From NCBI GenBank assembly GCA_048938895.1, contig JBHLLU010000001.1, positions 1 to 64,000 on the forward strand: 64,000 nt of DNA, in the 5' to 3' direction. The stretch comes from Promethearchaeota archaeon. GTDB lineage: Archaea; Asgardarchaeota; Lokiarchaeia; Sigyniarchaeales; SOKP01. A model generated the notes under the pieces. It was not told where the DNA came from. It did no database searches and saw only the letters and a list, made by a program, of their open reading frames with translations. Each line of letters opens with the position of its first letter. The first letter of the stretch is position 1. Below are positions 352-64,000 of the stretch, piece by piece. A program made the translations under genes and the position numbers.

Positions 352-378
352 TATATTGTTATTTCTATTAAATATTAC

Positions 379-918
379 CTATTCATCTGAATGGGCTAAA
401 AATATCAGTTTATCCATTATATAGCCCCAAGGATCTGAATGTCCGTTAATTTTATCGGCAGGTGGATTTTCCAAACTGAATCGGATATAGGCTATTTGCC
501 CGAAATGATGAATAGCATGCATTGAGGTCCTGTATATCTTCCATGCAAGAGTCCCTCTTCTTTTCAACTTTTGGTAATTTTCCCCTTCCCACTCTGGGGT
601 TCTCAGTCTTAGATCTTCATCTTCTGCATTTTCAATTAGTTCGAGGATCATAGGCTCATGTTTTTTAAATTTTTTAACTAAATCATCAAAAACTATATCT
701 TTCGAAACATAATCAAATGATTCGTCTTTTATCATTTTATACCAATAAGCCTCCGAATTTAGTAGATGTCTCAAATAACTCTCAATTGATCTTCCCTTGG
801 TGTTTTCAGGGACCCAAATTACTTCATTTTCTTTTAATCCTTCCAACATGCGATTTCCATAAAGCCTGATAGTTTTCACGACTTCTGTTAATTCGTTTTT
901 TGTAATTTTTCTAACCAT
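379..918 (-). CDS. DinB/YfiT-like family protein
   Basis: RSIESYLRHL...EAYW and HAIHHFGQI His motifs typical of DinB four-helix bundles. Confidence 0.75.
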   Translation of the reverse strand: MVRKITKNELTEVVKTIRLYGNRMLEGLKENEVIWVPENTKGRSIESYLRHLLNSEAYWYKMIKDESFDYVSKDIVFDDLVKKFKKHEPMILELIENAEDEDLRLRTPEWEGENYQKLKRRGTLAWKIYRTSMHAIHHFGQIAYIRFSLENPPADKINGHSDPWGYIMDKLIFLAHSDE

Positions 919-1033
919 TTTTAAGCACTAATAAATGTATTAGAATGCAGTTTTTTCATTTTAATAAAGATTATTATAGATTCAAAATTTTGAAGTGTTT
1001 TCTCTTTCATTGAGGTTATGGTTACTTTTAAAT

Positions 1034-1687
1034 TTATGAAAAAAACAATAACCATCCTCCCAAGATTAGTTCATAAAGAAGAATTAGCCCACCTCCAATG
1101 TTCCATAGGACTTTGAAGTCAAGCTTTATAAGAGACATTCCGTCACCGACGCCATAGAGAATGCTTGCAATAATTCCAAACCAACCAATAAATAGTGGTA
1201 CCACATCGTAAATAACAAAAAGGATTGTATATCCAAACGTGCCAATAGAGAAAAAGAGCTGTGCAATTGCAAATCTAAACTTTTTTGTCTCAAAAATGTT
1301 ATTACTTGAATCAATTGACGAATTTTTTTCTGCCTCACTAGTATCTGAGTATTTTGTTGCTAATTTGAGGAGCCCCCAGTAATTTTTTTTGTCGTAAATT
1401 TGGATCAAGGCTTCTATTATACGAGATATACACCAAATAATCCCTAATATTATGTTATATGGACTAAAAGCAAAAAACAAGGTTAACGCAAGAGAGATTA
1501 TTCCAAGATGCTCTATGAGAATTATGACGACTCCAATTTTAAATTTTGTTGGATTTTTGTTAATAAACTGTAGTTGAGCTTCTGCGTCCACATCACCTAA
1601 TGTTTTATACCCAAAAATACCACTAATGATGTTTGTAACAATAATAAATAAAAAGAAAAAACCCGATAATTGTGTTGCTATATTCAA
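1034..1687 (-). CDS. DUF4386-like integral membrane protein
   Basis: Multiple TM segments; VPLFIGWFG and C-terminal ELILGGWLL pattern; paralog of 1716-2396. Confidence 0.7.
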   Translation of the reverse strand: MNIATQLSGFFFLFIIVTNIISGIFGYKTLGDVDAEAQLQFINKNPTKFKIGVVIILIEHLGIISLALTLFFAFSPYNIILGIIWCISRIIEALIQIYDKKNYWGLLKLATKYSDTSEAEKNSSIDSSNNIFETKKFRFAIAQLFFSIGTFGYTILFVIYDVVPLFIGWFGIIASILYGVGDGMSLIKLDFKVLWNIGGGLILLYELILGGWLLFFS

Positions 1688-1715
1688 GGGGAATCATCCA
1701 ATTTAAGGCTCTTAG

Positions 1716-2396
1716 TTAACCATTGATACCAAAAAATAATAACCAACTTCCAATGAGTAATTCAAATAGAATCGCCAATAAACCACTAATAGAGGATAAT
1801 GCTTCATAAGCTTTAACATCAGGTTTTACAAGATTCATTCCATTAGCAAAACCAATTAAAATACCGGCAACAATTCCCATCCATCCAATAAAGAGCGGAA
1901 CTAATCCAAAGGTAACTAATACGATTGAAAAAGCGAGTGTGCCAACAGACCAACCGATCATAGCAAATGTGAATCTGTTGCTTTTAGTTTTAAGAATGCC
2001 GCGATAGGAATCCATTAGAGATTCCTTTTCCATACCACTAGTAATTGAGTATTCATTTGCTATATTAAGAAGTTTCCAGTAGTCTTTTTCAATATAAACC
2101 TGGATTGCACCTTCTGCTACTCGAAAAACCAATAATATGGTTCCAAACAATATATTATATAGGCTAATAACAAAAAACAACATTATAGCAAGTGTAATGA
2201 CGCAAAAATGTTCTATGAGTGCTAATCCAAAACCAATTTTAAATTTTCTCGGATTTTTGTTAAATTTTTGCAGTTTATCGTCTGATTCATAATGCTTTGG
2301 GGTTGGTTCTAATATATATCCAAATATGGCCATCGCAATTTGCAAAACCAAGATAAGCAGAAAAAGAAAACCAGATAACCAAATTTTAATATTCAA
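1716..2396 (-). CDS. DUF4386-like integral membrane protein (tandem paralog)
   Basis: Shares LSGF..L, NKNP.KFKIG, IEH, K.YW.LL, VPLFIGW.G and EL..G.WLLF with the adjacent gene. Confidence 0.7.
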   Translation of the reverse strand: MNIKIWLSGFLFLLILVLQIAMAIFGYILEPTPKHYESDDKLQKFNKNPRKFKIGFGLALIEHFCVITLAIMLFFVISLYNILFGTILLVFRVAEGAIQVYIEKDYWKLLNIANEYSITSGMEKESLMDSYRGILKTKSNRFTFAMIGWSVGTLAFSIVLVTFGLVPLFIGWMGIVAGILIGFANGMNLVKPDVKAYEALSSISGLLAILFELLIGSWLLFFGING

Positions 2397-2479
2397 CGGG
2401 GATCCTCCAATTTATTCTTCATTTGTTCACTTTACAAGTATTGATTTTTTAATTTATATTAAATATTTTCAAATACAAA

Positions 2480-3430
2480 TTATTTTTTACTATGTTCCAC
2501 GGTTATTACAACATTTCCTCTCTTATGCCCCTTCTCAACATACCTATGAGCTTCCACTATTTGTTCCAAGGTGTAACACTTATCTATGGCTGATCTTAGT
2601 CTCCCTTCCTCAATAAGCTCTTTGACAAAGACAAGATCTTCAGCCCTAATTTTAGGGGGGGAATCCCTTATAACGTTAAGATAGATTCCTCTCTCCTTTA
2701 GAGCCTTTTTACCATGTGATGATGCAATTCTAGCCACAGCGTCAAAAATAACATCATAATTTTCACCGACTTCGGTAAAGTCTTCTTTTGTGTAATCGAT
2801 GACTTTATCTGCTCCTAAAGATTTAACCATTTCTAAATTCGTAGTACTACATACCCCGGTAACTTCCGCTCCAAAATACTTAGCAAGTTGTACCGCAAAT
2901 GTACCTACACTTCCTGAAGCTCCATAGATTAAAACTTTTTGCCCCCTCTGGATACTTGCCTTTTTAAGAACTGTTAATGCTGTAATTCCGCCAGAAGCAA
3001 AACCCGCAGCGGCTTCATCAAAGCTTATATTTTGAGGTTTTAATGCCAACACACCATCTTCTGATAGACATTTATACTCAGCATAACCACCGAACTTAAA
3101 CTCAGTAGATGCAAAAATTTGATCACCTCTCTTAAATAAGGAGACATTCTTACCCACTTCTTCAATTTCACCAGCAAGCTCCATACCTAGTATTGCTTTT
3201 TTAGGTTTTCTAAGACCTAACATTAAATGTAGCATAATGGTTTGAAATTTGGATGTTGGGTGTTTACCCCTTCGAACTATTGTGTCTCCAATCGTTACAG
3301 ATGTTGCGTGTATTTTAACTAGTATTTCGTTATCCTCTGGAGTTGGTTTTTCAACTTCTCTCATTTCCAAGACATCAGGAGGACCGTATCTCTCAAATAC
3401 AATTGCTTTCATTTTTTCTTTATTTTCCAT
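2480..3430 (-). CDS. NAD(P)-dependent medium-chain dehydrogenase/reductase (quinone oxidoreductase-like)
   Basis: [20 protein letters not shown] nucleotide-binding motif, GNVVI C-terminus. Confidence 0.9.
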
Positions 3431-3461
3431 TTATATTATTCATCTCAGGTTTTTTCTATAT

Positions 3462-4274
3462 TTACAATGTGTGTTTTTGATTCATTAACTCCTTCACTTT
3501 TATATATGGATGATTATATCTCTCCCTATCCTTAGTATATTCACCCCATTGAATAGCTTTTTGAGGACAATAATGGAGACACCCTGTGCACATTTGACAT
3601 TTATGTTGCCACTCAGGTTTTTCATTTATGAGTTTTATATTATCGACAGGACAGATTTTTTGACAAATTCCACACCCATTACACTTTTCATCGACATCAT
3701 ATTTCTCATCCATAGTATTTACATCTTTTATAAAGGAAGAATATGATTTTTCCATTGGATAAAAAGATACTTTCCTTGCCGTATCTTTTTGATTATTACG
3801 GATTATTTCAGCAATATTTTCTAGTTTTGATACAGCTTTCTGTATTCTCTTTTCTCTTTTTTCTTTTGAGGGAAGTGGATTAATTCGTTTTGATCCCCAT
3901 ATATTATTTGAAAAAACTCTTAAACTATATGCGAAATCGAGGTCTTTGTTTTTTGGTTCTAATAATTTGTTTATTAGTGGTGCTACATACTGCCTGGAAA
4001 AACCACCCATAGAAGTAACAGCAAATATATATTCTGTATTACTCAAATCAATCTTTTCAATAAAATCATAGACAATTTTAGGTAGTGCCCAAGTGTATAC
4101 AGGAAAAACAAAGCCAATTTTTTCCGATATGGCAGTTATAGAATCTTGGTTAATAAGTCCCGCAATTGGTAGAAGTTCACAATTACTTAGTTTTTCTTTA
4201 AGAGCTTTAGCTATATGTAATGAGTTCCCTGTACCTGAAAAATAATATAGTGTTGTGTTGTAATTTTGCATCAT
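3462..4274 (-). CDS. EFR1-family flavodoxin/ferredoxin protein
   Basis: YFSGTGNS flavodoxin-like N-terminus plus two CxxCxxCxxxCP 4Fe-4S motifs. Confidence 0.9.
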   Translation of the reverse strand: MMQNYNTTLYYFSGTGNSLHIAKALKEKLSNCELLPIAGLINQDSITAISEKIGFVFPVYTWALPKIVYDFIEKIDLSNTEYIFAVTSMGGFSRQYVAPLINKLLEPKNKDLDFAYSLRVFSNNIWGSKRINPLPSKEKREKRIQKAVSKLENIAEIIRNNQKDTARKVSFYPMEKSYSSFIKDVNTMDEKYDVDEKCNGCGICQKICPVDNIKLINEKPEWQHKCQMCTGCLHYCPQKAIQWGEYTKDRERYNHPYIKVKELMNQKHTL

Positions 4275-4337
4275 TTTTATCTATATTATTTTTATTGTAT
4301 TTACTATAAATTAAAAATTCTTAATAATAATATTCTT

Positions 4338-5342
4338 TCAGTCTGAAGTGGAATTTTGCACGACATTTATAACTACATTTCCGGTTTTCTGCCCAGTTTC
4401 AACATATTTATGAGCTTCAACCATCTGATCCAACGGATAGCGTCTGTCTATTACCGATATCACCTTTCCAGCTTCAATCAGTTCTTTAAGAAATTCTAAC
4501 TGCTCAGTTCTTTCCTTCGTATTGTCCATATTCCTACTTATTAATGTTATGCCCTTTTTTTTTGCTTCTCTTTTTTGGTGATTAAGTAGTGTCATCTTTG
4601 GATTAGCTAGAAGATAAATCCCATTTTTTTTTAACGATTGTAAACCACTAGAAAACGAAATCTTCCCGATAATATCAAAAATAATATCATAAGTTTCACT
4701 GTTTTGTGTAAAGTCTTCCTTAGTGTAATCAATCACCTTATCTGCTCCTAGAGATTTCATCATTTCCAAACTCTTAGGATTACCAATCGCAGTCACATGA
4801 GCTCCGTAATATTTAGCTAACTGTATCCCAATCGTACCAATACTTCCAGATGCACCAATTAAAAGCATGGTATTACCTTCTTGAATATTAGCTTCTCTCA
4901 GATAATGGACTGCTTCAAGCCCTCCCACAGGAATTGTAGTTGCTTCTTCATAAGTCATGTTGTTAGGTTTAATTAACAAAATCTCACTCTCACGCAGACA
5001 TAGATATTCAGCATAAGATCCAAAATGAAAACTCGTCGTTCCAAAAACGGGGTCACCTTTCTTAAACAATTTTACTTCGCTACCTACTGACTCGATTTCT
5101 CCAGCTAACTCTTGTCCCAATATAGAGAAGCTTTTTCTTGGTCCTCTGAACCCAATTCCTAATCGCATGAGGAACTTTAACCAACCAGAAAATTTTAGAC
5201 TTCGCATCTCACAATCTCCTGTTGTCACAGTTGTTGCATATATTTTTATCAACACTTCATTGTTCTTAGGTATAGGTTTCTCTACTTCTTTGAGCTGGAG
5301 AACCTCAGGAGGTCCGTATTTTATGCATACAATTGCTTTCAT
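4338..5342 (-). CDS. NAD(P)-dependent medium-chain dehydrogenase/reductase
   Basis: MKAIVCIKYGPPEVL start (ATG 5342 preferred over the longer ORF), GSYAEY, GASGSIG, GNVVI; paralog of 2480-3430. Confidence 0.88.
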   Translation of the reverse strand: MKAIVCIKYGPPEVLQLKEVEKPIPKNNEVLIKIYATTVTTGDCEMRSLKFSGWLKFLMRLGIGFRGPRKSFSILGQELAGEIESVGSEVKLFKKGDPVFGTTSFHFGSYAEYLCLRESEILLIKPNNMTYEEATTIPVGGLEAVHYLREANIQEGNTMLLIGASGSIGTIGIQLAKYYGAHVTAIGNPKSLEMMKSLGADKVIDYTKEDFTQNSETYDIIFDIIGKISFSSGLQSLKKNGIYLLANPKMTLLNHQKREAKKKGITLISRNMDNTKERTEQLEFLKELIEAGKVISVIDRRYPLDQMVEAHKYVETGQKTGNVVINVVQNSTSD

Positions 5343-5362
5343 AATCAAATCATAAAAAAATT

Positions 5363-5725
5363 TTATAATTGAGTCCACGCACACAAAACAATAAGCGTAT
5401 TGAATACAAAACTTACAATTAGTAAAAAAACATCATATGCTTTATAGCTCTTTATCCCAACGAGGTTAAAAACGAAAAAGACAATTGCTACTATTATGTT
5501 TACCCAACTATTAACAGGAAATTCTAGTATAAGAGATAAAATGACCATAATAATAGGAACAACCATTATAATTGCTATCCCAAATGTCATACTCTGAGTC
5601 ATTGGTTTACCATCTATTTCCCCTGGTTTGAAATCTCCAGCAAATATTCGCAGCACATCACCTAGTAAATAACATAACATTGTAGCTATCCATATGAATG
5701 AAAGTATTATTTTCACATCGTTCAT
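5363..5725 (-). CDS. Small membrane protein (DUF6326-like)
   Basis: LSFIWIATMLCYLLGDVL N-terminus, four hydrophobic segments, GGAGTG SD-like site upstream. Confidence 0.65.
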   Translation of the reverse strand: MNDVKIILSFIWIATMLCYLLGDVLRIFAGDFKPGEIDGKPMTQSMTFGIAIIMVVPIIMVILSLILEFPVNSWVNIIVAIVFFVFNLVGIKSYKAYDVFLLIVSFVFNTLIVLCAWTQL

Positions 5726-5732
5726 ATTTCAA

Positions 5733-5955
5733 TCACTCCACAACATTTATTACAACATTTCCCTTTTTATGGCTTGGAATCAGGGTGCCTACCACTTCGA
5801 GCTAATTGCGTTGCTGCATTTACAGTTGTTGCATATACTTTTACCAGTATTTCATTATCCTTAGGAGCAGGCTTTTCAACCTCTTTTAATTCAAAAACAT
5901 CTGGTCCTCCATATCTAGTGTATATCATTGCTTTCATTTTTTCTTTATTTTCCAT
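5733..5955 (-). pseudogene. Internally deleted MDR oxidoreductase pseudogene
   Basis: The N-terminal ~60 codons ([20 protein letters not shown]...GRHPDSK) join out of frame directly to the extreme C-terminus [12 protein letters not shown], compared with paralog 2480-3430. Confidence 0.85.
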
Positions 5956-6390
5956 TTCATTCCTCTGTTTTGGCTATAAAAATAGATTAGTAATACATTC
6001 TAATTCATTGAGAGTTATTAAACCTTTTTAATTTGGTTCGATATTTAAAAAAAAGGAAATAAACGCATCAGAATAATCTTTAATTATTTCAAGAGCCCCG
6101 TTTTGTATTTCTAATTCTCCCTTATTCAATTCTAAACATAGCATAGGTGGATAAACATTTTCAGAGTTCACATGGTCTTGGACAAATTCCCTTCAAATTG
6201 TTCAACCAAAATATCAGAAAATGCAACAAAATAACCAGAAATCGTTTTAACAATGAAGTTGCTATATTTTGTCATTTCCCCATATTTAGCTAACCAAGTT
6301 GATATTTCTGTACTTGGAATCACAGTACTTACAACATCCCCAATAATCAAAAAATTAATAATAATAAAAAAAAGAGTAAATTTGATTAAT

Positions 6391-6645
6391 TTATTCCTTA
6401 CCTTGAATTAATTTTACAACAAAAATTATAAGAAAAATCGCTCCAATTGTTACACATATAATTGGAATCACCTGAGTAATTATCCCAACAACAAAACCTT
6501 CTACTGTACTAATAGAATCCACAAAATCCTGCCAGCTTGTTATATCAGGATAATGCCAATCTAGTAACGGAGGTAATACAAACATGGTGATTATAAAGAT
6601 CACAACTAGAATTATACCAATAATAAATGCCGTCCATTTTTTCAT
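6391..6645 (-). CDS. Small hypothetical membrane protein (2 TM)
   Basis: ATG start, two hydrophobic helices. Confidence 0.6.
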   Translation of the reverse strand: MKKWTAFIIGIILVVIFIITMFVLPPLLDWHYPDITSWQDFVDSISTVEGFVVGIITQVIPIICVTIGAIFLIIFVVKLIQGKE

Positions 6646-7127
6646 TAAGTTCTACACCAATTTTTTAAAATTGAATGATAATAATAATTTAGATGGGATT
6701 TTTAATAAAATTATATCACCTATTATGGAATAGTAACTTTTGTGTTGAGAGCAATATACTTATTTTGCCCTAAGTAATTGGTTTTATGTTTTTAGTATAA
6801 TAATATACGCATTTTTCTTTTTAAATGAAAATATAATGGAAGTTTAGGTACCAAAATATTTTCTCTTTAGTTGAAATTTGGGAATAAAAAAAAAATGTGT
6901 CTTAATCAAAAACCATAAATTACATATGTAATATCAAACTATCTTTAATGATTGTAAATAGCATAATTGATAGTATTTTATTCTTGAAATATTAATTCGC
7001 TTACCGCGAAGTTCTATACAATATTTATTGCCAATTTTCGAGAAGAAATCAATTGGTTTATATTTGAATTTTGGTATTATAAGGAAATTGGGTTTACAAT
7101 TTAAATTTAAAAAGGTGGATATTATCT

Positions 7128-7517
7128 ATGCCTAAAATGAAAAAAAAACAAGTAAAAAAAGGAAGAAGAACCTACGGTCCAAATCCCCAACCAGAAATAA
7201 CGCGAGTAAAAATGCCTTATAGGAAAAATGGAGAAATGTTTGCTCGAGTTACAGATATCTATGGTCAAGAGCGGATGGGAGTTTATTGCGAAGATGGAAA
7301 ACATCGTATAGGACGTATACGAGGCAAAATAAAAAAGCGAGTTTGGATAAGAAAAGGTGATTTAGTAGTAATTAATCCCTGGGAATTTGAAACCTTAGTA
7401 AAAAATCAAAAAGAAAAATGTGAAATATCCTGGAGATATTTGAAACATGAAATTTCTTGGTTAGAACGTAGGAAATTAGTGCCTGAAAATCTAGATCTAA
7501 ATAATATTACGTTTTAA
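7128..7517 (+). CDS. eif1a: Archaeal translation initiation factor aIF-1A
   Basis: CEDGKHRIGRIRGKIKKRVWIRKGDLVVINPWE signature; AGGTGG SD upstream. Confidence 0.93.
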   Translation: MPKMKKKQVKKGRRTYGPNPQPEITRVKMPYRKNGEMFARVTDIYGQERMGVYCEDGKHRIGRIRGKIKKRVWIRKGDLVVINPWEFETLVKNQKEKCEISWRYLKHEISWLERRKLVPENLDLNNITF

Positions 7518-7606
7518 TCTAATTTTTATTATTTATTATTTAAGTGTTTAATTTCTCTATAGTATATAGAGAGTTATTTTAAAAGTCAGTGTTTTAAATC
7601 ATTATT

Positions 7607-8224
7607 ATGGATTCATATGATAAATTACCAGATGCTGAAATAACACCTAAAGGGGAAATATCAAAGAAATTTCTGGGACTTGGAGTGAAATCATTCAAGG
7701 AAGCATGTGAATATGTACACAATATGGAGTATGGTTATAATACAACTTATGAAGAGAAGATGATTCTTTTTATTGAAGAATTGGGTACTTGTACTACTAA
7801 ACATGCGATAATTGCTGGTCTTGCTGAAGAATTAGGTATACCTCTTTATAAACATGTGGGCATTTATAAGTTTACAGAGGAGATTTCAACGGGAGCAAAT
7901 GATATAATGACAAAATATAACATTCCTTACATACCCATGACTCATTGCTTCTTAGTGTATAATGAAAACCGCTTTGATCTGACAGAGGGTAATTGCAATG
8001 GAAAAAATACCGCTATCAAGAACTTTATATATGAACAAGAAGTTGAACCGTTTATCAGCAGAAAAGATGAATATTTATTGTATAAAAGTGTATTAAAAGA
8101 AACAGTTCTCCCTTCAGAAGAAATGGAAGGAATTAAAGAAAGGTCTCTCCTAAAAGCACGTGAAGAAGCAATAATTCTATTGAAAGAAAACGTGAAAAAA
8201 CAGAAACAACTTTTAACTACATAA
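7607..8224 (+). CDS. Hypothetical protein, possible transglutaminase-like fold
   Basis: GTCTTKH, THCFL and FDLT give a Cys-His-Asp spacing. Confidence 0.55.
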   Translation: MDSYDKLPDAEITPKGEISKKFLGLGVKSFKEACEYVHNMEYGYNTTYEEKMILFIEELGTCTTKHAIIAGLAEELGIPLYKHVGIYKFTEEISTGANDIMTKYNIPYIPMTHCFLVYNENRFDLTEGNCNGKNTAIKNFIYEQEVEPFISRKDEYLLYKSVLKETVLPSEEMEGIKERSLLKAREEAIILLKENVKKQKQLLTT

Positions 8225-56533: not shown

Positions 56534-59068
56534 TTAAAAATCAACATCTAGTTGAGCAATATCAGCCATGTAAAGATTCACTATAGCTAGCCACCTCTTT
56601 TTTGTGTCTAAATCACAAAAGCATTTATTAGTGTATTCTTGTCCTTTACTGAGATTTTCAAGTGCTAAGTCAAATTTTTCAAGTTCCTTATAACATATTC
56701 CTAACTTAATAAAAGTCTGATTAATATACCATTCATCACCTGCTAATTCTATTGTCTTTAAAAATTCATTAGCCGCTTTTTCATACTCTTCAAAATTCAT
56801 TAATATTTCTCCATATGTGTCATGATATATCCCCATATCAGGATTGTTCTTTATGAGCTCTTCTATTGTATCTAGGACCAATTCCTTCTCATCCAGATAC
56901 TGTAACCAATAAACTTTATTAAGCATAAGATTGTTATCATTCGGATATTTTTCAAGTAAACTATTTATAATTTCTAAACCGGCTTCAATATTTTTCATTT
57001 CTTTAAGTATGTATGCTTTTTTGATTTTAAGGTTTCTTTCTCCCTCAGGAAACTCAGTAATCAATTTATCTAAGATTATAATGATATCATCGAATTGGTC
57101 AAAATATAATAGGATTCGAATTTTAGAATTATGGAAATCTAGATTGCTAGGATTTAATTTTAGTGCCTGTTCAATTGATTCTAACGCTTCATCATATCGA
57201 TCGAGCTCTAGTAGGACTGTAGTTTTTAGGTGATATAAGTGTGCTTTAATAATATTATTTGACTCTAATTCAATCGCTTTCTCAATATAACTTATCCCAT
57301 CTTCTTTTTCTGCTATTTCTTTATTAAAATCATAAATTTTATTATAACCAAGTACAAACCCTTTTAATCCATAAGAGAGAGCACTTTTAAGGAACGTCTC
57401 CGTTGCTTTATCAGCCATTCTCAACGCATTTTCTATATCCCCCAAAACAATATATGAAAATCCTAAAACAAAAAGACCAGAAATATAGATTTCATCTTCT
57501 TCGGAAACAGAGGATAAATCAATCTTACCTTCCAATAATTCTGTTGTTTCATTATTACGATTCAAGTGGCATAGAATTAGACTTTTAATAATATTAAGAT
57601 CTAAGTCTTTTATTTTCGATTTAGAAGTACCAAAAACCTTTTCTAAATCTACTAACCTCAATGATTTATTATATTCTTCAGATTGGATATACTGTTGGAT
57701 CTTGAAATTTAGTTTTTCTAGTTTGAAAAATGGTTTAAAATACGGTTGTAAAACCTCTAATATTGACTTATCTAAATAATAATTCATTTCACTCTCACTT
57801 ATAAATTGGTATTGACTTTTAGAGATATCAGCTTGTAAAATTTCGGGTATATTTTGCCATATAATACCTTCTAATTTGTCAGCAACACCCATTAATTTCT
57901 TTTCCTTTTCAATTTTATATGCCAAATAATTTATATATTCTGGTAGAAATTTTCTTAAAGAGCTTTTTAATCCTTCATTGAATATATTTTGGCATGCTTC
58001 TTCTAGAATCGCATTTACAGTGGAACTCATATTTAATGGAAGTATTAATTCTGACGAACTTTCAAAAAGTTTGTTTAGATATGTAAATTTTGTGATATGT
58101 TCTTCTGTAATAACTTGAAGCATCTTTTCTAATTTTTCATCAGATTGAAAATAATAAAATTTATCAGGAGGAACAGTTAATTTAAAAAATTTTATAGGAT
58201 AGATCTGATTTTCTACTATTTCATCAATATAATAATCAAGTGTTGTTTGCTTAATCCTATATTTTTCTGAGAATTCCTTAGATGAGATATATGCCGGAAA
58301 CTCATTTGGGTGATTAATAGCAAGAAAAAGTAATATTTTCCTAAAGTTGTCTTCATCTTTTAATACAGACTTAATTTTTTCATATTCTAATCTTAAGACA
58401 CTGTTAAGAAATCGGAATTGAATATTCCTCTCTCTGATCTGAAAGCTATCAATAAATTTTGTAGTTTTTTGGGTAATATCAGCAATCCTTTTAATTTCTT
58501 CTTCAAGTATCGATTGTCTATCTAAGTTATAAAAAGTCAACATTTTTGAATACTGTGTTTTACCAGGTCGCGTAATCCTATATTCTTTATTTTCTTTTGT
58601 TACAAATCCTTTATCCATTAACAAGTTCATATTCTTTGATAATGAAGATTGATTTATCGAAAGTGGTTCTTCAAGAAAATCTGCCCATTTACAATAATTA
58701 TTATTATAAACCATCCATAAGATTGTATGATCATAATTTCTTCTTTCAAGAATAACTTTAGGAGGATAACTTAATTTTCTTTTCCCTTTTTTTGTTTGGC
58801 TTAATTCATAATATCTTTCTCTTCCTTTAGATGTAATCTTATATTCATTGAACTGGCTTTTTAAAATATAACCTTCGCGCTTCAGTTTACCCAAATAAAT
58901 TGATAATGTTGATTTATTTATTTTTTCTTTTAAATCTCCCCAGGAACATGCATCATTGTTACTTAATATCCAAAGTACGATGTATTCATAATTGGGCTTA
59001 CCGATAATAGGATTTAAAATCTCCTCCGGGGGATAATTACAAGAAGTACCCAAATCGTTTACCATCAA
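56534..59068 (-). CDS. Tandem winged-HTH plus extended TPR protein (paralog of 53245-55140)
   Basis: Same NY[DE]H.ILWMVYNNNYCKWADFL.EPLSINQSSLSKN repeat and TPR C-terminus, with ~200 extra residues of TPR. Confidence 0.8.
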   Translation of the reverse strand: MMVNDLGTSCNYPPEEILNPIIGKPNYEYIVLWILSNNDACSWGDLKEKINKSTLSIYLGKLKREGYILKSQFNEYKITSKGRERYYELSQTKKGKRKLSYPPKVILERRNYDHTILWMVYNNNYCKWADFLEEPLSINQSSLSKNMNLLMDKGFVTKENKEYRITRPGKTQYSKMLTFYNLDRQSILEEEIKRIADITQKTTKFIDSFQIRERNIQFRFLNSVLRLEYEKIKSVLKDEDNFRKILLFLAINHPNEFPAYISSKEFSEKYRIKQTTLDYYIDEIVENQIYPIKFFKLTVPPDKFYYFQSDEKLEKMLQVITEEHITKFTYLNKLFESSSELILPLNMSSTVNAILEEACQNIFNEGLKSSLRKFLPEYINYLAYKIEKEKKLMGVADKLEGIIWQNIPEILQADISKSQYQFISESEMNYYLDKSILEVLQPYFKPFFKLEKLNFKIQQYIQSEEYNKSLRLVDLEKVFGTSKSKIKDLDLNIIKSLILCHLNRNNETTELLEGKIDLSSVSEEDEIYISGLFVLGFSYIVLGDIENALRMADKATETFLKSALSYGLKGFVLGYNKIYDFNKEIAEKEDGISYIEKAIELESNNIIKAHLYHLKTTVLLELDRYDEALESIEQALKLNPSNLDFHNSKIRILLYFDQFDDIIIILDKLITEFPEGERNLKIKKAYILKEMKNIEAGLEIINSLLEKYPNDNNLMLNKVYWLQYLDEKELVLDTIEELIKNNPDMGIYHDTYGEILMNFEEYEKAANEFLKTIELAGDEWYINQTFIKLGICYKELEKFDLALENLSKGQEYTNKCFCDLDTKKRWLAIVNLYMADIAQLDVDF

Positions 59069-60215: not shown

Positions 60216-60479
60216 ATGGTTCAAGTATATATTAAGAAAAATGAATTGGAAAAACCGTATAAAATTGAAGAAATAATAATATATGAAGAACTCCCTGCTG
60301 AAAAGGAAGAGTATAGGGTAACAAGAGTCAAAGCAGAGGAGAAACCAGTTAAAAAAGCTTTGCGTAGGCTCATAGAGAAAGCAAAGTATAATCCGAAATA
60401 TATAGAAGAAACTTTTCTTATGGAAAAATTGAGAAGAGATATTCATAAGAATTATTATCGAAACTACGGAATCTACTAA
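60216..60479 (+). CDS. Hypothetical highly charged protein (87 aa)
   Basis: GAGGTG SD, operon-like spacing from the previous ORF. Confidence 0.7.
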   Translation: MVQVYIKKNELEKPYKIEEIIIYEELPAEKEEYRVTRVKAEEKPVKKALRRLIEKAKYNPKYIEETFLMEKLRRDIHKNYYRNYGIY

Positions 60480-60625: not shown

Positions 60626-60724
60626 ATGAAAATGAAAAAGAAAAAATTGGAGAGAATTGAAAGGATTAAGATAAGGAACGATCTTGAAGAGCATAAGCTC
60701 CTAATTAATCGTATAATTAAATGA
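60626..60724 (+). CDS. Putative microprotein MKMKKKKLERIERIKIRNDLEEHKLLINRIIK (32 aa)
   Basis: Strong GGAGG SD; T-tract after stop. Confidence 0.6.
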   Translation: MKMKKKKLERIERIKIRNDLEEHKLLINRIIK

Positions 60725-60783
60725 TTAATTTTTTCACATTTTTGAAAAATTATATATATACATTTAAATTAGAGGTAAAAAAA

Positions 60784-60879
60784 ATGCCAAAAAAGAAAGA
60801 AAAAGCATTGGATGCTACATTAACAGATTTGCTTTTAAATCCAAAGAAATATAAATTTGGATTAAAAGACCTACACTAA
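60784..60879 (+). CDS. Microprotein MPKKKEKALDATLTDLLLNPKKYKFGLKDLH (31 aa)
   Basis: GAGGT SD; homologous to 55285-55365 (TL.D..L.PKKY..GLKDL); long T-tract downstream. Confidence 0.75.
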   Translation: MPKKKEKALDATLTDLLLNPKKYKFGLKDLH

Positions 60880-61149: not shown

Positions 61150-61713
61150 ATGAGTGAAGACGGGCGTAGGTTTAGGTTTAAAATAACGGTAATCGGAGAT
61201 GGTAGAGTAGGAAAGACTACTCTTATTAGGAGGTACACTCAAGGATCATTTAAAAAGGATTATGTTAAGACAATTGGGGCACAATTTTCAGTATATGATA
61301 ATGAAATTGGAGGAGATAAAGTCCGACTAATATTTTGGGATATTGCGGGACAAGATACGTTTCACTTCTTAAGACCTTCATTTTTTAGCAATAGTAAAGG
61401 AGCAATTATTGTATATAGTCTTGAAGACAATAAACACGGACATGATAGTTTTGACCACATCTCAATTTGGGATGAAGATATAAAAAAACACTGTGGTGAG
61501 ATTCCTGTTGTTTTATTTGCAAACAAAGTAGATTTAGTGGATGAATCTAATATAGATCAATCCGTCCTAAAAGAAATTGTCGAGGAGAATGGTTATCTTG
61601 GATATTATATAACTTCAGCAAAAACAGGAAAGGGAGTGTTTACAGCTTTCAATATTTTAATAGAAAATTTGTATAAATCGTCCAAAGCATTATCTCTTGA
61701 ATTACAAGATTAG
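61150..61713 (+). CDS. Rab-like small GTPase
   Basis: GDGRVGKT, WDIAGQ, NKVD, TSAK. Confidence 0.93.
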   Translation: MSEDGRRFRFKITVIGDGRVGKTTLIRRYTQGSFKKDYVKTIGAQFSVYDNEIGGDKVRLIFWDIAGQDTFHFLRPSFFSNSKGAIIVYSLEDNKHGHDSFDHISIWDEDIKKHCGEIPVVLFANKVDLVDESNIDQSVLKEIVEENGYLGYYITSAKTGKGVFTAFNILIENLYKSSKALSLELQD

Positions 61714-61866: not shown

Positions 61867-62418
61867 ATGAAGGATATAAGTTTTGTTTTTAAAATTGTTG
61901 TTATAGGGGATGGAAGAGTAGGGAAAACTACACTAATTCAAAAATTTACAAAAAGCACCTTTAAGGAAGAATATATAAAAACAATTGGTGCCGATCTCTC
62001 AAATTACGATTATGTAATTGACAACGACAAAATTAGACTTCAATTCTGGGATATTGCAGGGCAAGATAAGTTTCATTTCTTACGTCCTTCATTTTTTAAC
62101 AAAAGTAGAGCAGGAATTATTGTTTATAGCCTTGAGGACAATAAACTTGGTCAAGAGAGTTTTAAGAATATCCCAAATTGGTATGCTGAAATCAAGAAAT
62201 ATTGTGGGGATATCCCAATTATTATTTTTGCTAATAAGGCAGATTTAGTAGAGTTTTCTCAAGTAGATGAAACCCCTATCCAAGAATTTGTTAAGGAAAA
62301 TAAATTGCTTGGTTATAAAATTACATCAGCTAAAACAGGAGAGGGAGTCATTGATGCTTTTAATACAATTATCAAAAATTTGTATGATAAATTTAAATCT
62401 CTTTCCGAAAATAGTTAA
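61867..62418 (+). CDS. Rab-like small GTPase (tandem paralog)
   Basis: GDGRVGKT, WDIAGQ, NKAD, TSAK. Confidence 0.93.
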   Translation: MKDISFVFKIVVIGDGRVGKTTLIQKFTKSTFKEEYIKTIGADLSNYDYVIDNDKIRLQFWDIAGQDKFHFLRPSFFNKSRAGIIVYSLEDNKLGQESFKNIPNWYAEIKKYCGDIPIIIFANKADLVEFSQVDETPIQEFVKENKLLGYKITSAKTGEGVIDAFNTIIKNLYDKFKSLSENS

Positions 62419-62553
62419 TTTTTTCTTAAATCTTTATCATTTTCATGCATTTTTCCAAAAAATACTATCATCGAATGCAATCCTTTATATATATAAAAAA
62501 ATAATATCAATTAATTTCAAATTAATTTTGTGCGAAATCAAAGAGGTGCTATT

Positions 62554-62784
62554 ATGGTAAATATTGAAATTGACGTCGTTAATAAACCTACAAATAGATT
62601 CAGAATTGAGCAGTATTTTGGGACACCAGTTGCTAATGAAATATTTCAATGTCTTCAACAACATATTGGTTTGTCTGCATCACAAGCAGAAGCACAACTA
62701 AGAGCTTCAATCCAAAGAACAGCAAATGCTATAGCAAAGGAAGATGAAATTATCACAATTATGGGATTTATAACTGTAGGTTAA
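62554..62784 (+). CDS. Small protein, candidate RiPP precursor 1 (ends MGFITVG)
   Basis: GAGGTG SD before ATG 62554; paralog of 62853-63086. Confidence 0.75.
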   Translation: MVNIEIDVVNKPTNRFRIEQYFGTPVANEIFQCLQQHIGLSASQAEAQLRASIQRTANAIAKEDEIITIMGFITVG

Positions 62785-62852
62785 AAATCCTTTATAAAAG
62801 GTTGAAAATATTAATCTAATTAAAATTAAGTACACTTCAATGAGGTGTTGAA

Positions 62853-63086
62853 ATGTCAATCAACGCAGATAAAGTAAAGAAAAAATCAAATAGAAAAAGA
62901 CTTGATAGATTCTTCGGCAGAGATAAAGCACAAACGATTATAGATTGCTTACAAGATTGTGTAAATCAAGGGAAATCAAGTGCTGATATGGGGGATTGTG
63001 TAAAAAATTGTCTTATCCAAAAAGGATTCAGCGCGTCTAAAGCCGATGAAGCAGTCAGTCTCATGGGTTTCATAACAGTAGGTTAA
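62853..63086 (+). CDS. Small protein, candidate RiPP precursor 2 (ends MGFITVG)
   Basis: GAGGTG SD; shares NR.R....FG...A..I..CLQ and DE....MGFITVG with the upstream gene. Confidence 0.75.
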   Translation: MSINADKVKKKSNRKRLDRFFGRDKAQTIIDCLQDCVNQGKSSADMGDCVKNCLIQKGFSASKADEAVSLMGFITVG

Positions 63087-63140
63087 AGGAAGAAGTTATT
63101 ATCTAATTTTTTTCATATAATTTTTCTAAAGTGGCTTATC

Positions 63141-64000
63141 TTGATCCCTGAATCTATAGATTTATTAATGATTTTTCCTTCAGGAGGGGATATTTATCAA
63201 ACAAATTTCAATCACCACCTAGGAACAGCATATATAATAGGTTATGTAAGGAAACATGGATTTAAAGCTAAACAGTTTTTATCAAACACCCAATATAATG
63301 TTAGAGAATGTGTTAAATCAATTTTCCAATACAATCCAAAAGTAATAGGGTTTACTGTTTATGAAAGCAATTATATGCAATCAGTTTTACTGTCGACTTT
63401 CATAAAAAAAGAAAAGCCTAATATTATTATAATTTTTGGGGGTCCTACTCCGACTATTCACTCTGAATACTTATTAAAACAAGTCAACAGTATTGATCTC
63501 TGTGTAAGACAAGAAGGTGAAGAAACTGTACTTGAAATTTTAAAAGAATTACAGAGTGTCAATTATACTATATCAAGAGCCAATTTTACTGAAATTAAAG
63601 GTATAATCTATAGAATTAAAGATCAAATCTTCAAAAATCCTGATAGTGACTACCTTTATTCAAAAAGACATATTAGGAATTACATTGATAAATATCCCTC
63701 TCCATACCTTTCTGAAATTATCCCTAAAAGTAAAGCTTTTCCCATAGGGATACTTACGGGAAGAGGATGTAATCAGTCTTGTACGTATTGTAACTGTGCT
63801 GTTTTAAGTAAAAAGAACATATATTTTCATTCAATAGGGAGAGTAATTGAAGAACTAGAATTTATTAGTCAACAAGAGAAATTTTCACATCCCATTCCTA
63901 TATATGATGATGCTTTTACAATAATTCCTTCACGAGCGAAAAAAATTTGCGAAACTATCATTGAAAAGGACATAAAAATTCCGTTATTATGTATTACTCG
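63141..64000 (+). CDS. Cobalamin-binding radical SAM protein (partial, runs off window)
   Basis: Not in the ORF track. HLGTAYI, VIGFTVY, FGGPTPT and EGEET (B12-binding domain); TGRGCNQSCTYC (CxxxCxxC at 63768-63791); DDAFT. Start is TTG 63141 or ATG 63168. Confidence 0.9.
   Translation, partial: MIPESIDLLMIFPSGGDIYQTNFNHHLGTAYIIGYVRKHGFKAKQFLSNTQYNVRECVKSIFQYNPKVIGFTVYESNYMQSVLLSTFIKKEKPNIIIIFGGPTPTIHSEYLLKQVNSIDLCVRQEGEETVLEILKELQSVNYTISRANFTEIKGIIYRIKDQIFKNPDSDYLYSKRHIRNYIDKYPSPYLSEIIPKSKAFPIGILTGRGCNQSCTYCNCAVLSKKNIYFHSIGRVIEELEFISQQEKFSHPIPIYDDAFTIIPSRAKKICETIIEKDIKIPLLCIT

Follow-up and report, generated by a model that had tools for sequence, protein, structure and literature searches.

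A small protein family and its candidate class-B radical SAM modifying enzyme in Asgard archaea

Twin small genes next to a radical SAM enzyme

We analysed a 64,000-nt stretch (hereafter, the window) from a Promethearchaeota archaeon of the order Sigyniarchaeales, which corresponds to bases 1-64000 of a 185,936-bp contig (JBHLLU010000001.1) in the 4.65-Mb assembly GCA_048938895.1. The window ends within a gene for a class-B, i.e. B12-binding, radical S-adenosylmethionine (SAM) enzyme, which is preceded by two small paralogous genes, denoted here pepA and pepB. The best reading of the comparative and structure-prediction data is that peptides and enzyme constitute a dedicated substrate-enzyme pair. 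We consider it probable (about 65%) that PepA and PepB are substrates of the enzyme, 745 amino acids (aa) in length, which would modify their C-terminal tails.

Both small genes are located on the forward strand. pepA (62554..62784, including the stop codon at 62782-62784) encodes a 76-aa protein that combines a helical leader-like region with the C-terminal tail MGFITVG, and pepB (62853..63086, including the stop codon at 63084-63086) encodes a 77-aa paralogue ending in the same heptapeptide. Each ATG codon is preceded, at a distance of 5 nt, by the Shine-Dalgarno-like hexamer GAGGTG (62543..62548 and 62842..62847, forward strand), read directly from the DNA, and the enzyme gene starts with TTG at 63141, 54 nt past the pepB stop codon. 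PepA and PepB share the pattern NR.R....FG...A..I..CLQ and are 34% identical (BLASTP, E 5e-16). In a global alignment of the two proteins, 7 of the last 8 columns are identical, versus 23 of the remaining 71 (32%). The MGFITVG codons, the presumed site of modification, are ATG GGA TTT ATA ACT GTA GGT in pepA (62761..62781, forward strand) and ATG GGT TTC ATA ACA GTA GGT in pepB (63063..63083, forward strand), with synonymous differences in three of the seven. By crude arithmetic, seven identical terminal residues would arise by chance at ~33% identity with a probability of ~0.33^7, or ~4e-4. No open reading frame (ORF) of the assembly other than pepA and pepB ends in GF[ILV]T[ILV]G. The first-pass annotation, made from the DNA of the window, had described the two 76-77 aa paralogues with their GAGGTG hexamers, common leader pattern, identical ends in different synonymous codons and distance to the radical SAM gene, all of which can be read in the sequence. 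It had also taken MGFITVG for an invariant core, which did not hold: the heptapeptide is shared only by the two paralogues and their nearest relative (G004), and the tail varies across the family.

Distribution of the pair in Asgard archaea

Co-occurrence of the small proteins and the enzyme was assessed in 400 genomes of the phylum. Full-length orthologues of the enzyme, defined by E <= 1e-162 per piece and an alignment reaching residue 733 or beyond, are present in 28 genomes, 22 of which belong to the genus of the window, five to a second genus and one to another family. The next-best matches (E 4.5e-59 and weaker) span only residues ~23-416, i.e. the generic radical SAM part. Directly upstream of the enzyme, on the same strand, an ORF of 62-115 aa is found in 27 of the 28 loci, and three of the 28 genomes contain two copies of the peptide. 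A peptide profile built from 28 peptides of 25 genomes, leaving out G232 (a near-duplicate), G274 (where the copy is cut by the contig end) and G271, matches the same 28 genomes as the enzyme and none of the other 372. Matches in the 25 source genomes, including PepA (E 4.0e-15), itself one row of the profile, are obtained by construction; what is informative is the absence of matches from 372 genomes, together with the result for the three genomes left out. Of the 33 matches to the profile, 30 adjoin the enzyme gene. The other three comprise the second half of a gene interrupted by a contig end, a low-complexity repeat protein and the match in G271. In the latter genome (C100:5500-7700), the peptide is encoded 2.4 kb upstream of an intact enzyme gene, with a short ORF resembling the N-terminus of the enzyme and then a tetratricopeptide repeat (TPR) protein gene lying in between, an arrangement suggesting a past rearrangement or partial duplication.

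The proposal of a dedicated pair of small genes and class-B radical SAM enzyme is supported by their presence in the same 28 of 400 genomes and their adjacency in 27 of 28 loci. Homologues of the small proteins lacking the radical SAM gene, which the first-pass annotation regarded as telling against such a pair, were looked for in the 400 genomes and no true orphan was found. One candidate orphan (G007:C35, E 7.4e-4) was rejected as a low-complexity repeat protein.

The behaviour of the tail is best seen in the three archaeal genomes that encode two peptides and a single enzyme. The tails of the two copies are identical in 7/8, 7/8 and 6/8 positions, versus 32%, 42% and 25% identity in the remainder of the proteins. 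Retention of the tail while the remainder drifts is the pattern expected from selection by a shared enzyme or receptor.

Leader and tail of the peptide family

The leader, comprising the first two thirds of the peptide, is helical and carries the conserved signature [T/S]-x-[R/K]-x-x-L-I-E-x-[F/Y/H]-G...G..I. The tail is short and hydrophobic, with the pattern aromatic-x-(T/I/S)-hydrophobic-G at the C-terminus, and differs between genomes (FITVG, HWVTVG, NYETIGR, FVIVG and others). Among 91 non-redundant tails, 53 end in glycine. An aromatic residue five positions from the terminal glycine is present in 46 of the 91, rising to 54 if one or two residues are allowed after the glycine, and 27 of the 91 fit aromatic-x-[S/T]-x-x at the end.

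PepB has twin CX3C pairs, located on two predicted leader helices (codons 33-53, window 62949-63011), and many relatives have them likewise. PepA contains a single cysteine and some relatives none, which shows that the family does not depend on these pairs. Where present, they may serve as metal ligands.

Searches of the peptide against Pfam and NCBIfam yielded no fitting family, with Pfam giving chance-level matches only. A leader of the NHLP/Nif11 (proteusin) type was considered and rejected, since none of the 28 family members matches the corresponding NCBIfam models at E <= 0.05. A word-index search with PepB, a search type too insensitive for this peptide family, returned only PepB itself.

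Relatives in Lokiarchaeum and bacteria

The nearest named relatives of the pair come from metagenome-assembled genomes (MAGs) of Loki-type Promethearchaeota. Candidatus Lokiarchaeum ossiferum B35 (CP104013.1) encodes an enzyme that is 43% identical and a peptide ending in IIFVSIG. Bacterial enzymes with 31-42% identity are found in Bacteroidales, Aminicenantes, a Desulfobacteraceae MAG and 'Hebobacterum'. The attribution of the system to Asgard archaea in the first-pass annotation is therefore correct with respect to the host and its nearest relatives, the Promethearchaeota MAGs, but the system is not confined to them.

Ten bacterial loci were read, in which the enzymes are 31-41% identical over most or all of their length. 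Small ORFs with a similar start are located upstream of the enzyme in eight of the ten; the remaining two loci (L083 and L084) have no clear counterpart. Comparison of 28 archaeal and 11 bacterial peptides with hhalign gives a probability of 96.3% and an E-value of 1.8e-9 over 50 leader columns, and on this profile evidence we regard the leaders of the archaeal and bacterial peptides as homologous. The peptide profile was also compared with 1.84 billion representative proteins, a library that carries no genomic context. This yielded 71 matches at E <= 1e-3, 26 of them at E <= 1e-10. Proteins of 56-117 aa account for 66 of the 71; the five long ones (295-1316 aa, each with several matched stretches) look like repeat or cysteine-rich proteins. 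On an Aminicenantes contig (WVZO01000533.1, locus L080 at 377-7937), three tandem peptide-enzyme pairs on one strand precede the beginning of a fourth peptide gene. These peptides have tails in which G, F, Y, I, V and P are abundant.

In a quick tree search, the 26 archaeal enzymes form one group (SH-like approximate likelihood ratio test support 94), and the bacterial sequences are positioned between them and two generic class-B outgroups. This topology hints at a single acquisition of the enzyme from bacteria, which we do not claim; given the quick search and its long-branch warnings, no firm donor or direction is drawn.

Architecture of the enzyme

The enzyme gene occupies window positions 63141..64000 on the forward strand, corresponding to the first 286 codons, and ends at contig position 65378. 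The part within the window already matches the B12-binding family PF02310 (E 2.2e-15) and the beginning of Radical_SAM. In the full-length protein, PF02310 covers residues 24-133 (E 8.8e-15, 55 bits versus a cut-off of 32.1) and Radical_SAM (PF04055) covers residues 205-384 (E 1.9e-16). The CxxxCxxC motif of the SAM cluster (C210/C214/C217) is present in all 38 homologues examined, 26 archaeal and 12 bacterial. An AlphaFold (AF2) model based on 26 orthologues, with a predicted local distance difference test (pLDDT) value of 81.1 and a predicted template modelling (pTM) score of 0.86, is most similar in Foldseek to CysS (9n1d, E 1.8e-16, 482 columns), followed by TokK, TsrM, MgmA, OxsB and AprD4 (to 4e-12). 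The enzyme can thus be assigned to class-B radical SAM proteins by its B12-binding domain, CxxxCxxC core and predicted fold, whereas the use of cobalamin in catalysis is a prediction. AprD4, one of the fold matches, is known to work without cobalamin, and the B12-binding domain alone therefore does not settle the matter.

None of the curated NCBIfam families is matched above its cut-off. The best similarities are to the PhpK family (102 bits versus 600), ApyD (98.7 versus 750) and HpnJ (92 versus 577.6), and scores were also obtained for TIGR03975 (60.9 versus 281.85) and TIGR04014 (52.4 versus 360).

The fold match to solved class-B enzymes covers only about the first 480-500 residues. It is followed by a C-terminal extension of ~300 aa with eight conserved cysteines (C628, C637, C654, C687, C690, C696, C699 and C711), each of which is present in 26/26 archaeal and 10-12 of the 12 bacterial homologues. 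SPASM domains have a seven-cysteine pattern, including CX2CX5CX3C, for two auxiliary [4Fe-4S] clusters. The enzyme has a CX2CX5CX2C block and, after it, one further cysteine, which is close to that pattern and not identical to it. The searches did not confirm a SPASM assignment. The extension corresponds to no Pfam or NCBIfam family, and the matches of residues 469-745 and 584-745 at E <= 10 include no SPASM model, with the limit that HMMER filters drop most matches above about E 0.1. A separate model of residues 440-745 (pLDDT 88.6, pTM 0.89) has no Foldseek match in the PDB at E <= 0.001; the best one reaches E 0.011 with a TM-score of 0.16, and no SPASM enzyme is among the matches listed. 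The enzyme models lack the metal clusters, and the C-terminal region may be blurred thereby. When a profile of the C-terminal domain was compared with PDB sequences, nothing better than E 0.23 was retrieved. Since profile, fold and PDB-sequence searches were all negative, the extension is treated here as a new domain rather than as SPASM, and it probably binds metal clusters. A similarly insensitive word-index search with the C-terminal part of the enzyme returned six proteins, for which the sole source name is 'B12-binding domain-containing radical SAM protein'.

Predicted binding of the leader to the C-terminal domain

For complex prediction, the enzyme alignment and the peptide alignment were supplied as two chains, in three runs and with controls. 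The median score was 0.64 (0.64, 0.00 and 0.74 in the individual runs), versus 0.00 for the best control. At least 26% of contacts recur between the runs, and the pLDDT of the partner is at least 58. Of 80 solved complexes, 58 attain the score mark, as do 2 of 110 mismatched pairs, a calibration that holds only roughly for self-made alignments. In the confident interface, PepB residues 9-62 contact enzyme residues 464-468, 579-581, 612-620, 631-639 and 724-740 of the C-terminal domain. Within it, peptide residues 9-21 are predicted to face enzyme residues 612-620 and 729-736. The prediction supports docking of the leader on the C-terminal domain of the enzyme and suggests that leader binding is the role of this new domain. 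No family or fold of the RiPP recognition element (RRE; RiPP, ribosomally synthesised and post-translationally modified peptide) was found in the enzyme or in the proteins encoded downstream. Fold matches of the C-terminal domain to McbB of the microcin B17 synthetase were considered as an indication of an RRE and rejected as too weak (probability 0.3-0.5, E ~0.03).

Genomic neighbourhood and the TPR/longin-like protein

To follow the cluster past the window, 18 kb of the contig were read beyond it. The gene next to the enzyme (contig 65482-67527, forward strand) encodes a 681-aa TPR protein with a longin/roadblock-like end. Its repeats include a MalT-like TPR region (58.6 bits versus a cut-off of 45). 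The last 160 aa match no Pfam family; in the ESM Atlas, the last 161 aa score 0.88 to Roadblock/LAMTOR2 and Fuz_longin clusters, which we regard as a lead only. Past the TPR gene, on the opposite strand, are genes whose translations resemble 2-oxoacid:ferredoxin oxidoreductase and fumarate hydratase. The first-pass annotation placed the rest of the cluster beyond the window and suggested looking there for further maturases, RRE domains, proteases or transporters. The downstream sequence contains none of these, and the TPR/longin-like protein is all that the rest of the cluster comprises. As for its picture of a typical RiPP with a long leader and a short core, there is no sign of leader removal or export. 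A search of sequencing runs listed six, all of them DNA runs from two studies, with no RNA run among them.

The TPR/longin-like protein is a constant companion of the enzyme. An orthologue is adjacent in all 25 archaeal loci with enough flank, and in L. ossiferum the gene is located upstream of the pair rather than downstream. All 22 enzyme-bearing genomes of the genus contain a TPR/longin copy with at least 48% identity, as opposed to at most 43% for full-length matches in other genomes. The 22 best matches after the query's own gene are all in enzyme-bearing genomes, most of them as immediate neighbours of the enzyme gene; the one in G231 is incomplete and lies on a different contig. The TPR-longin family as a whole is strongly expanded in the genus: a single genome can contain as many as 22 matches at E <= 1e-20, and tandem arrangements are frequent. 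The bacterial loci differ in this respect. By tblastn, 0/12 of them encode a homologue of the archaeal TPR protein, and Bacteroidales loci have non-homologous TPR proteins upstream, with the repeats recognised by Pfam. One of the Bacteroidales proteins has a TIR-like start (TIR_2, E 0.065), again a lead only.

The peptide-enzyme pair sits within a larger cassette, which includes a double winged-helix/TPR protein, two Ras-family GTPases and the TPR-longin/roadblock-like protein. On the upstream side, a Ras-family small GTPase (61867..62418, forward strand; Pfam Ras, E 1.6e-42) is a conserved neighbour of uncertain membership, and a second one (61150..61713, forward strand; E 2.1e-39) precedes it. 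A Ras-family GTPase is found within ~3 kb in 16 of the 25 archaeal loci. Two small ORFs without a Pfam family, both on the forward strand, lie further upstream. The 87-aa one (60216..60479), whose middle is acidic and whose C-terminal part is basic and conserved, is found repeatedly upstream of the peptide gene in many related loci, as is the 52-aa one (60721-60879); the former is taken as context only. So is an 844-aa protein with two winged-helix domains and TPRs, encoded on the reverse strand (56534..59068).

There is one exception to this arrangement. Genome G233 (L094, C19:4000-16000) has kept both GTPases along with the 87-aa ORF. It encodes neither the peptide nor the 745-aa enzyme, and in their place are a different radical SAM-like ORF of 507 aa and two membrane ORFs. 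Of the TPR/longin orthologue only the last 241 aa are present (~61% identical). The module in this genome looks remodelled or decaying.

Comparison with known systems

Several known systems resemble the present one in part. The class-B radical SAM enzymes of RiPP pathways, namely ApyD (NF050148) of the aminopyruvatides and the 'RiPP maturation radical SAM C-methyltransferase' TIGR03975, have the same B12-binding domain and CxxxCxxC barrel, as well as a small co-oriented neighbour gene whose product is likely modified in its C-terminal part. Proteusin and bottromycin methylases are class-B RiPP enzymes, and a long structured leader is common to proteusins and the peptides described here. The ApyD and TIGR03975 cut-offs are missed, however, and the system differs from them in the ~300-aa extension with eight cysteines, a leader other than NHLP/Nif11, the lack of a protease or exporter and the TPR/longin-like partner. 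The archaeal MgmA/QCMT, the glutamine C-methyltransferase of methyl-coenzyme M reductase (MCR) (9ccb, TIGR04014), is a class-B radical SAM enzyme whose substrate is a protein and not a cleaved peptide, and its structure matches the model of the enzyme with E 5.2e-14. Unlike the present enzyme, MgmA has neither the C-terminal extension nor a dedicated small substrate gene, and the TIGR04014 cut-off is missed.

A second comparison concerns the biphenomycin-like pathway, in which a B12-radical SAM enzyme is reported to crosslink aromatic residues, cobalamin having no evident function in the reaction (PMC12257519). Likewise a class-B enzyme acting on a short aromatic-rich motif of a ribosomal peptide, it shows that a B12-binding domain does not guarantee methylation. 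An MNIO hydroxylase, an RRE partner, an arginase and further proteins are needed in that pathway (PMC12257519); none of them is present here, and the likeness is drawn at the level of the enzyme class.

The closest published logic is that of the FxSxx-COOH systems. According to Kaur et al. (2020, PMC7159879), a peptide with C-terminal aromatic-x-S-x-x, a radical SAM-SPASM enzyme and TPR-bearing STAND/AP-ATPase effectors travel together, and the peptide has been proposed to serve, in connection with the TPR protein, as a signal or toxin. The shared traits are a small fast-diverging protein with a conserved extreme C-terminal motif, a radical SAM enzyme with extra cysteine clusters that is predicted to modify this protein, and an adjacent TPR protein (PMC7159879). 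The differences are that the enzyme here is of class B rather than a radical SAM-SPASM protein, that no zincin metallopeptidase, vWA/MoxR or AP-ATPase is present, and that the TPR protein has a longin/roadblock-like end and belongs to a Ras-family GTPase cassette in an archaeal host. The FxSxx_TPR model gives 20.4 bits versus a cut-off of 300. We conclude that the cassette is not a member of the FxSxx-COOH systems, which serve as an analogy.

Possible mechanism and alternative interpretations

In the substrate-enzyme interpretation, the folded helical N-terminal two thirds of PepA and PepB would act as a recognition (leader) domain docked on the C-terminal domain of the enzyme, so placed that the hydrophobic tail (MGFITVG) may enter the radical SAM active site and be covalently modified. 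Most characterised class-B enzymes are methylases, and because this is the usual chemistry of the enzyme class, one or more cobalamin-dependent C-methylations at unactivated tail carbons would be the likeliest reaction. Within this interpretation, we give methylation somewhat less than half of the weight, an oxidative crosslink rather under a third, and other radical chemistry the rest. The crosslink is kept in consideration because of the eight additional cysteines and the aromatic crosslinking by a B12-radical SAM enzyme described in PMC12257519. The modified product may keep its leader and act inside the cell, possibly as a ligand of the TPR protein. An intracellular, leader-attached product is favoured because no protease or exporter is conserved, while a dedicated TPR protein is.

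Several observations weigh against this interpretation. The score was 0.00 in one of the three complex runs, and the predicted complex does not give a confident position for the peptide tail. Because all curated NCBIfam cut-offs are missed by far, the enzyme class predicts the chemistry only loosely, and the eight extra conserved cysteines are suggestive of auxiliary Fe-S clusters, for which a class-B methylase has no need. Many of the genomes are closely related and cannot be counted as independent, which means that there are far fewer separate events than the 28 co-occurrences would indicate. In the Aminicenantes locus, two copies of the peptide that are 95% identical differ in two of their last eight residues, the opposite of the archaeal pattern; Aminicenantes peptides served by separate enzymes differ more. 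Finally, no protease, transporter or immunity gene is conserved nearby, and the 20 kb of downstream sequence contain neither a protease nor an exporter.

Another reading retains the pair of peptide and enzyme and assigns it a different reaction, an oxidative intramolecular crosslink of the tail, such as a three-residue cyclophane between the aromatic residue and the residue at +2, of the kind known from triceptides and FxSxx-COOH peptides. Auxiliary Fe-S clusters in the cysteine-rich domain would then accept the electron. We judge this unlikely, albeit deserving serious attention. Of all side chains in the tail, the aromatic one at the fifth position from the end is conserved best (46 of the 53 tails ending in glycine), which is suggestive of a crosslink, as is the resemblance of the CX2CX5CX2C block and the one cysteine after it to the SPASM pattern. 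The 27 of 91 tails fitting aromatic-x-[S/T]-x-x have the FxSxx-COOH shape given in PMC7159879. The B12-radical SAM enzyme for which PMC12257519 describes crosslinking of aromatic residues, with no obvious role for cobalamin, offers a precedent. The searches of the enzyme speak against the crosslink, since SPASM profiles fail to match its C-terminal part at E <= 10, and the listed fold matches, none of which reaches E <= 0.001, include no SPASM enzyme. The methylase activity of most characterised class-B enzymes weighs in the same direction. In tails of the HIGVG type, moreover, the residue at +2 from the aromatic one is a glycine, which has no beta carbon.

It is improbable, in our estimate, that the small proteins are accessory subunits, i.e. 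a scaffold, a chaperone or a carrier of cobalamin or electrons, and that the true substrate is the TPR/longin-like protein, a GTPase, a lipid or a small molecule. A leader that is long, predicted to fold and bound to the enzyme in the model would suit a subunit, and so would the potential metal ligands provided by the twin CX3C pairs of many members, but these pairs are absent from PepA and several relatives. Class-B radical SAM enzymes also act on lipids, cofactors and proteins, with HpnJ, BchE and MCR methylases among the similarities of the enzyme, and the loci read contain neither protease nor exporter. The tails, however, behave as substrates: with 2-3 peptides per enzyme, they are the same within an archaeal genome while the leaders drift, and they differ between genomes. 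The position of the tail at a free C-terminus after a conserved leader is also that of known precursor peptides.

A classical secreted RiPP with an antimicrobial or signalling role, whose protease and exporter are encoded elsewhere and whose TPR and GTPase neighbours are there only by descent, is highly improbable: the similarity of the enzyme to the RiPP methylases ApyD and TIGR03975, the short hydrophobic core, the patchy distribution with an archaeal group among bacterial branches in the quick tree, as for mobile biosynthetic genes, and the three tandem pairs on one Aminicenantes contig all fit it, but no protease or transporter was seen in 28 archaeal or 10 bacterial loci (the 25 archaeal loci with wider flanks having been queried only for the window's own neighbours), a dedicated TPR orthologue tracks the enzyme even in L. 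ossiferum despite a different gene order, and Bacteroidales loci, too, have TPR proteins upstream, non-homologous as they are.

Returning to the substrate-enzyme interpretation, a more specific extension of it is that the modified tail is a ligand of the TPR protein, which, through its longin/roadblock-like end, would switch the neighbouring Ras/Rab-like GTPases. We consider this part distinctly unlikely as it stands.

Significance for Asgard archaea and the enzyme family

The genes described here probably encode an undescribed system for the chemical modification of small-protein tails. We found no description in the literature of a radical SAM system modifying peptide or protein tails from Asgard archaea, and none in Pfam or NCBIfam; PMC13635244 concerns other Asgard gene clusters. 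What is new is the precursor family, the C-terminal domain of the enzyme and the unusual TPR partner, whereas a ribosomal peptide or protein modified by a radical SAM enzyme is of a known kind. For radical SAM enzymology, the family provides a class-B enzyme with probable extra clusters. Its members in Bacteroidales and Aminicenantes offer easier expression hosts and make the family common to two domains of life. The homologue in the cultivated Lokiarchaeum ossiferum (CP104013.1) makes the idea testable in a real organism.

For the biology of Asgard archaea, the pair gives the GTPase/TPR-longin cassettes a concrete set of partners. If the proposed link between the modified tail and the TPR protein is true, a eukaryote-style small-GTPase module in these archaea would be gated by a radical post-translational modification, and in the bacterial relatives peptides of this kind would act through TPR proteins with other outputs, TIR-like domains among them.

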